From: an uncultured Dehalococcoidaceae bacterium
Lineage (GTDB): Bacteria > Chloroflexota > Dehalococcoidia > UBA2979
Length of the DNA: 64,000 bases
Direction: 5' to 3'
NCBI GenBank assembly: GCA_964479165.1
Contig: CAYZJO010000013.1
Span: 9,386 to 73,385 of the forward strand
Shown piece by piece: positions 9,988 through 10,037 of the stretch. The notes below the pieces were generated by a model, which saw only the letters and a program-made list of their open reading frames with translations, had not been told where the DNA came from and ran no database searches. Positions within the stretch are counted from its first letter, which is position 1. Every line of letters begins with the position of its first letter. The translations under genes and the position numbers were made by a program.

Positions 9988-10037
9988 TCTGCTTCCCAAG
10001 CAGAGGGTCGCGAGTTCGAATCTCGTCTCCCGCTCCA
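9988..10037 (+). tRNA. 3' fragment of tRNA-Gly(CCC): anticodon stem, variable loop, T-arm, acceptor 3' strand and CCA. The 5' acceptor strand and D-arm are missing.
   Basis: tctgc-TTCCCAA-gcaga (anticodon CCC, U33, A37), gggtc, gcgag-TTCGAAT-ctcgt, ctcccgc-t-CCA. The preceding 25 nt cannot pair with the acceptor 3' strand, because GCGGGAG is absent. The antisense ORFs RETRFELATLC and WSGRRDSNSRPSAWEAD are the usual tRNA-antisense artefacts. Confidence 0.6.

Follow-up and report, generated by a model that had tools for sequence, protein, structure and literature searches.

What is half of a tRNA gene doing near 10 kb of the stretch of DNA analysed here (64,000 nucleotides in length, called the window below)? 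The original prediction took this 3' half of tRNA-Gly(CCC) for the footprint of site-specific integration at the edge of an accessory region. Fragments of tRNA genes are the most precise markers of island boundaries, and the correct polarity of such a fragment decides which genes count as mobile. The locus raises two questions, namely whether an element integrated here and on which side of the fragment it lies. The fragment is the following feature.

9987-10037, plus strand: displaced 3' part of tRNA-Gly(CCC), positions 26-76 (the core), defined by its identity to intact genes and to orphan copies

The string first noted is present at 9988-10037, and the block of identity with real tRNA genes is one base longer (9987-10037, 51 nt). 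This block spans A26 through C74-C75-A76 and comprises the anticodon arm, the variable loop, the T arm, the 3' acceptor strand, the discriminator U and CCA. The anticodon stem reads TCTGC/GCAGA around the loop TTCCCAA (U33, anticodon CCC, A37), the T arm reads GCGAG-TTCGAAT-CTCGT, and the 3' acceptor strand CTCCCGC is followed by T and CCA. Since the identity extends from position 26 up to CCA, what remains of the tDNA is its 3' terminus and not an internal piece. Its 50-mer occurs once in the window, where zero matches are expected by chance, and the window holds no second copy of the fragment. The complete cloverleaf with acceptor stem that characterizes a functional tRNA gene is lacking: the 5' strand is absent and ARAGORN called no tRNA anywhere in the 64 kb. 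At the gathering threshold Rfam gave no match in the window, and a permissive cmscan of 9800-10200 returned a partial tRNA match of 23.5 bits, against a gathering score of 29, which covered model positions 10-63 and no acceptor stem. The tRNA 5' half, GCGGGAGTAGCTCAGTTGGCAGAGC, was not found in the window even when three mismatches were allowed, which also ruled out a split tRNA, another idea that was considered. Open reading frames overlapping 9852-10037 have no Pfam match, so the fragment is clear of conserved protein domains.

We scanned one genome per species, covering 185,579 species, for exact matches. The scan gave six places, all of them in Dehalococcoidia (Chloroflexota) MAGs: four intact tRNA-Gly(CCC) genes of 75-76 nt (L002, L003, L005 and L006), one copy cut by a contig end (L004), and one orphan (L001). 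A first metagenome scan pattern, CCACGGNCGGN, was too strict and gave no match; a second pattern found a third orphan on a metagenome contig (L007). The core is 100% identical to the four intact genes, which were called by ARAGORN, and equally to the orphan copies in L001 and L007. In L001 and L007 the block of identity measures 53 nt, against 51 nt in the window; it runs from A26 or the anticodon stem to CCA and fits the anticodon-centred 'A' class of attachment sites. An orphan 3' half without its 5' half, and without a complete tRNA upstream, is thus confirmed. The description of the tRNA as canonical actinobacterial had to be given up: the exact matches fall only in Dehalococcoidia, and the proteins encoded in the window also have their best named homologues there. 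That the window comes from Chloroflexota and not from Actinobacteria bears on every other annotation made of it.

The sequence standing where the rest of the tRNA gene should be carries most of the information. Two features make it up.

9852-9986, plus strand: conserved element-side arm (putative P arm of attP/attR), non-coding, in place of the tRNA acceptor 5' strand and D arm, with 77-85% identity to the arms of L001 and L007
9855-9874, plus strand: GTCCCGCCC-tt-GTCCCGCCC, a tandem direct repeat marking the arm's distal end and a candidate for the arm-type binding sites of a recombinase, invariant in the three orphan arms

Where the intact genes have GCGGGAGTAGCTCAGTTGGCAGAGC, the window, L001 and L007 carry an unrelated arm of 135 nt. 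Together with the invariant 51-nt core, this arm forms a 186-nt module that occurs in three genomes (the window, L001, which is MAG BC2.88, and L007). The three arms are 77-85% identical in pairwise comparison, with no indels, and the conservation ends sharply at 9852; further left the identity is 42-45%. Beyond the arm the three genomes are unrelated, with a kinase remnant and an AhpC-like gene in the window, a LigD primase-polymerase and ligase in L001, and a RES toxin in L007. While the adjoining arms have diverged by 15-23%, the core is identical at 51 of 51 positions in all three orphan copies. If core and arm decayed equally, an identical core would have a probability of 2e-4 to 2e-6 per pair, which contradicts the earlier picture of a decaying remnant. 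Such invariance beside diverged arms is expected if the core must match the tRNA. Searches of phage, plasmid and viral collections did not find the arm. Phage and plasmid collections yielded generic tRNA-Gly similarity only, neither the core nor the arm/core junction was found in viral contigs, and the window matches no known plasmid.

The tandem GTCCCGCCC pair lies at -132 in every orphan arm, its copies being spaced by 11 nt. In BC2.88 (L002/L020) the pair recurs 86-106 nt past the intact tRNA, on the tRNA strand and with a spacing of 12 nt. It was found nowhere else in the 24 fetched loci or the window (~190 kb), and it is absent beside the empty-site tRNAs of L003, L005 and L006. A motif repeated on both the P and the P' arm, as is characteristic of the attP of heterobivalent tyrosine integrases, is therefore present as a sequence pattern only. 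If a single attP had borne arm-type sites on its P and P' arms, integration would leave just such pairs of GTCCCGCCC on both sides. The attP reconstructed in this way is ~290 nt long (a 135-nt arm, the 51-nt core and an arm of at least 106 nt).

BC2.88 (GCA_041390625.1, contig JAWKPM010000009.1) provides both ends of such an integration. Its intact tRNA lies at 164,957-165,032 on the minus strand and its orphan at 74,776-74,828, also on the minus strand, so that the two share a strand and the 3' fragment follows the intact tRNA 90.1 kb downstream. This is the arrangement by which a cognate tDNA is recognized (same replicon and orientation, 3' fragment downstream, distance of 2-200 kb), found here for the homologous module. 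The first 14.6 kb of the interval from the tRNA (attL) end encode ChrB, APH, two ABC exporters, several small regulators, DsrE/rhodanese, CsoR and a P-type ATPase; this is accessory cargo. In the ~20 kb of the interval that were scanned (14.6 kb at the attL end and 5.2 kb at the attR end), neither an integrase nor a serine recombinase turned up. The model below draws on three orphan copies and one two-ended example.

Taken together, these observations indicate that the fragment is probably the core of an attR-type junction, left by an integrative element in the chromosomal tRNA-Gly(CCC) gene, with the element to the left. The element would have recombined with that gene through an attachment site that has the anticodon loop at its centre, and the attP of the element would carry a copy of tRNA positions 26-76. 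Integration would rebuild a working tRNA at the far end, where attL would consist of the tRNA 5' part, the core and the P' arm. The original 3' part would be displaced to the near end, where attR would consist of the P arm, the core and the native trailer. Read in this way, the window would contain the P arm with its two tandem GTCCCGCCC sites (9852-9986), the core (9987-10037) and the native trailer from 10038 onwards, and the intact tRNA and any recombinase gene would lie beyond the left edge of the window. A recombinase would have made the junction, most likely a tyrosine integrase with arm-type sites, and the tandem 9-mers are candidates for its arm sites. Some of the DNA on the left side would belong to the element, which may still be able to excise. 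The mechanism is an ordinary and well-known one, in which a displaced tDNA fragment marks the end of an island. Integration at an att core, as first suggested for the orphan half, is borne out by the conserved module, the pair in BC2.88 and the empty sites.

The polarity follows from the mechanism. Integration sets the island between the regenerated tDNA and the displaced fragment, and a 3' fragment lying upstream of that tDNA is excluded (PMC4383910). Here the fragment is on the plus strand, preceded on the left by the element arm and followed on the right by the native trailer, which requires the element to be on the left. The trailer is the following feature.

10038-10059, plus strand: native-type tRNA trailer (B' flank), which aligns with the trailers of L004 and L003 and partly with that of L006

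The alignment of L004 to the window has 97% identity over the core and 22 nt of trailer; this contig begins 1 nt before the core (L004:1-52). No tandem 9-mer motif is present in the trailer of the window. L003 and L006 share a ppx/gppA gene upstream of the tRNA, with ordinary genes and no recombinase after it, and these ppx-tRNA loci represent the native unoccupied locus. The trailers of the other two orphans (L001:2722-2775 and L007:4915-4968) are 70% identical and share a GC-rich hairpin, GGCCCGCC-nnnn-GGCGGGCC. The genes beyond these two trailers differ, so even the native downstream flank of the tRNA is a variable spot.

Assemblies of the same population were used for an empty-site test through the ligase gene on the right of the fragment. 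Contigs from that population agree with the window in their arrangement and end within the core. One of them, L016, which is 99% identical to the window, runs from the ligase through an IS into the trailer and ends 29 nt inside the core (L016:4331-4359, corresponding to 10009-10037 of the window). The next relative, L015, diverges at the 3' end of the ligase gene. Logan contigs 99-100% identical to the window were present in several read sets. Breaks at the core are expected at k=31 if the core is repeated in those genomes. They are consistent with an intact tRNA elsewhere in those genomes, at a position that the breaks themselves do not give.

With the element placed to the left, the genes between the left edge of the window and the arm deserve a closer look. 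They comprise three features.

15-8196, minus strand: type II DMSO-reductase-family molybdoenzyme cassette (partial delta, EB_dh gamma, FeS beta and Mo alpha subunits), with a divergent PAS-BTAD regulator and FmdE, identified by Pfam
8255-9145, plus strand: AhpC/TSA-like gene (Pfam AhpC-TSA), with no other gene intact in the lineage-specific stretch that separates the syntenic cassette from the arm
9546-9745, minus strand: frameshifted and 5'-truncated histidine-kinase (HATPase_c) remnant, recognized by the order of its G1 and G2 boxes, with weak E-values

Pfam domains establish the molybdoenzyme locus reported to the left of the fragment. Several Dehalococcoidia contigs contain the cassette (EBDH-like alpha, beta and gamma subunits) with 77-87% DNA identity, in other surroundings each time. 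L008, L022 and L024, Dehalococcoidia loci whose flanks differ from one to the next, match it colinearly at a DNA identity of 77-82%; one of these relatives has it next to core haem-biosynthesis genes. Checking the homologous cassettes for cores and arms revealed no tRNA-Gly core or arm near any of them. The cassette is on the island side of the fragment, and it is a candidate member of the island that need not be island DNA. At the delta end of its copy of the cassette, a more distant Dehalococcoidia genome has an intact, divergent tRNA-Gly(CCC) (L022:12950-13024 and L023:5602-5676, both on the plus strand), which follows ctaA after ~240 nt. The acceptor stem of that tRNA is the same, its anticodon and T stems are different, and its orientation relative to the cassette is opposite to that of the orphan in the window. 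Its place beside the cassette may be a coincidence or an old linkage.

On the left, lineage-specific sequence is confined to 8255-9851, with the AhpC-like gene and the kinase remnant. The AhpC-like protein has an exact match on a same-strain contig (L021) and is not orthologous to the AhpC of L008. In a test of the left junction, L021 was 100% identical to the window and ended at 9703, before the arm. The decayed histidine-kinase tail described upstream of the fragment on the opposite strand is upheld by its G1-box piece at 9741-9685 (..RIFERF..) and its G2-box piece at 9653-9546 (LGLAIV..GG..), which are in the right order and in different frames, with weak E-values; the ORF enclosing them has no Pfam match. 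A truncated kinase pseudogene abutting the arm suggests that the interior of the element has been deleted or rearranged. Further out, contigs of an 87%-identical relative carry only housekeeping-type genes (chaperone, aminopeptidase, transporters) over ~6 kb to the left of the window.

Two readings of the left side remain: a large island that includes the cassette, or a deleted body of which only the arm and core are left. The second reading regards the locus as a dead relic, in which the arm and core are all that is left of the element, body and integrase having been deleted, and the genes to the left are ordinary chromosome. It shares its origin with the best explanation, so that confidence in the two overlaps, and as a description of the present state of the locus we consider it possible but rather unlikely. 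The 5'-truncated, frameshifted kinase remnant abutting the arm fits a relic, as does the colinearity of the cassette (15-8196) with that of relatives in which no core lies close by. Among ~60 ORFs scanned in the window, those in 1-9986 included, none encodes an integrase or serine recombinase, so that the 10 kb in the window next to the arm are without one, and the 87%-identical relative shows none in the ~6 kb further left either. Moreover, the change in composition looked for at 10.0 kb did not appear, as GC content makes no step there. However, no base of the core has been lost or changed, and aligning the arm with the copies in other genomes requires no indels. Three genomes share the same left boundary of conservation, which independent deletions would not give.

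The first reading can be extended further. The arm and core would then end a large mobilisable island (tens of kb, comparable to the 90-kb interval in BC2.88) with an undescribed att/recombinase family in Dehalococcoidia other than Dehalococcoides, whose recombinase lies at a distance from the att sites or acts in trans, and the island in the window would carry the molybdoenzyme cassette. In this full form the proposal is doubtful. If it were true, it would mean horizontal transfer of a respiratory module, like that of the rdh islands at ssrA in Dehalococcoides.

The reading from which the work started makes the fragment the left edge of an accessory island to its right, with IS elements, a PIN toxin and copper and metal genes. 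The features on that side are as follows.

10456-11590, plus strand: complete IS with an rve_3/HTH_32 transposase and 33-bp imperfect inverted repeats, outside the att module, identified by Pfam and its repeats
12919-14241, minus strand: LigD-type ATP-dependent ligase ORF of 440 aa
24031-24441: PIN-domain toxin, with a small upstream ORF at 23705-24034
24649-24786 and 32558-32695: 138-nt direct repeat of 75% identity, its copies 7.9 kb apart and bracketing a DinB/hydrolase/GNAT/IS6 region
29620-30438 (plus strand) and 30729-31358 (minus strand): two diverged IS6/IS240-family transposase copies, inverted and ~75% complementary over 532 nt, the second one truncated
42918-47699: copper/metal cluster with DUF305, a heavy-metal P-type ATPase (44083-46440) and a cupredoxin-like protein

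The IS elements, the toxin and the metal genes attributed to this side are indeed there according to Pfam. With one IS110, the IS copies on the right number four, and they are accompanied by the PIN toxin, an MMPL transporter, CorA and the copper/P-type ATPase cluster; in addition, the first 3 kb on the right are absent from the nearest non-conspecific relative (L015). Nevertheless, an island on the right is improbable. Its polarity is wrong, given that the mechanism excludes a 3' fragment upstream of the island and its tDNA (PMC4383910). A native tRNA trailer lies directly to the right, the element arm with its tandem sites lies to the left, and the 54 kb to the right are free of any second fragment, tRNA or recombinase. 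The rve_3 IS, which lies 0.4 kb beyond the fragment, was inserted later and is fixed in the population; contigs from other samples that are 99% identical carry this insertion too (L016). Removing the IS (10456-11590) in silico as if it had split a gene revealed no target duplication and restored no ORF. As to the ligase, most ligase-only homologues are ~310-330 aa long and cover only ~55% of the 440-aa ORF; either its start has been set too far upstream or it has an extra region. In L001, a LigD primase-polymerase and ligase pair stands directly against the element arm.

The 186-nt module could also be thought of as a structured-RNA gene with a tRNA-like 3' domain, selected for a function of its own. 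Such a gene might explain why three genomes with unrelated flanks have kept the module free of indels, why its core is invariant, and why a GC-rich hairpin lies just downstream in L001 and L007. We regard it as very improbable, however: the acceptor stem cannot form when its 5' strand is missing, and RNAalifold found compensatory changes in 1 of 53 pairs, with a positive covariation term. The folding z-score of -0.93 is no better than that of shuffled sequences, there is no promoter or terminator consensus nearby, and no Rfam family matches beyond the partial tRNA match. Furthermore, the tandem motif after the intact tRNA of BC2.88 fits DNA sites on two att arms and not one RNA. A coding arm was ruled out as well, as the arm substitutions show no codon periodicity (11/12/12 over the three positions). 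Without codon periodicity, real covariation, a stable fold or a promoter or terminator consensus, the conservation of the module is best read as that of DNA sites with constrained spacing. Finally, chance resemblance, or a tRNA pseudogene formed by local duplication and decay, has nothing in its favour beyond the missing 5' half and is next to impossible: the core matches real tRNA genes at 51 of 51 positions against a chance expectation of zero, the sequence replacing the tRNA upstream is conserved in other genomes, and the fragment starts at the anticodon stem and ends exactly at CCA.

An attR-type junction with the element on the left moves the suspicion of mobility from the IS and metal region on the right to the side with the respiratory molybdoenzyme cassette. 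The 135-nt arm with its tandem GTCCCGCCC also provides a searchable signature for a family of elements that target tRNA-Gly(CCC). All that is known of the host lineage comes from metagenomes, and hardly any mobile elements outside Dehalococcoides have been described in it.

How does the locus compare with known systems? The closest general framework is the Islander catalogue of tDNA-integrated genomic islands (Hudson, Lau and Williams 2015, PMC4383910), in which attP is ~250 bp and islands range from 2 to 200 kb. Tyrosine integrases use a common class of anticodon-centred att sites, designated 'A' (PMC4383910). Like Islander islands, BC2.88 has a 3' terminal tDNA fragment in direct orientation downstream of a regenerated tDNA, and the identity block from the anticodon stem to the 3' end in the window is that of the 'A' class. 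The reconstructed attP of ~290 nt is to be set against ~250 bp, and the 90.1 kb of BC2.88 is inside the range of 2-200 kb. By contrast, Islander rejects candidates without a tyrosine integrase (PF00589), and none was found in 1-9986 of the window or in ~20 kb of the BC2.88 interval. Other differences from the Islander cases are that the window holds one end only, that the host is a Dehalococcoidia lineage outside Dehalococcoides known from MAGs only, and that the arm occurs in no known phage or plasmid.

Within the same class of bacteria, Dehalococcoides has islands that target ssrA (tmRNA), with a 20-bp repeat and insertion in the T loop (McMurdie et al. 2011, PMC3146451). Next to attL these islands have a module of six genes, among them that of the CcrB-like serine recombinase DsiB (PMC3146451). 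Several likenesses to the present locus can be listed: the class is the same, the 3' part of a tRNA-like gene is targeted, direct repeats lie downstream of the intact gene, a short conserved motif lies directly upstream of each repeat, and respiratory or accessory cargo is carried. The features that define the ssrA islands are nevertheless different from those found here, where the target is tRNA-Gly(CCC) and the repeat is 51-53 nt long, starting from the anticodon stem. No serine recombinase was found within 14.6 kb of the BC2.88 attL or in the window, and those 14.6 kb hold no module of the DsiB kind either. Since islands of the same class use a serine recombinase, the type of recombinase at the present locus should not be assumed.

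A tRNA-Gly gene is also the integration site of mycobacteriophage L5, whose common core is ~43 bp long. Compared with attP sites of the lambda/L5 type, which are recognized by heterobivalent tyrosine integrases, the present locus belongs to a different host phylum and has no sequence similarity to any phage in the collections searched. The organization is nonetheless alike. In both cases the core overlaps the 3' part of the tRNA, the spacing of the arm is fixed, without indels, and short motifs are repeated on both arms ~90-130 nt from the core, a position for which the GTCCCGCCC sites are the candidates here.
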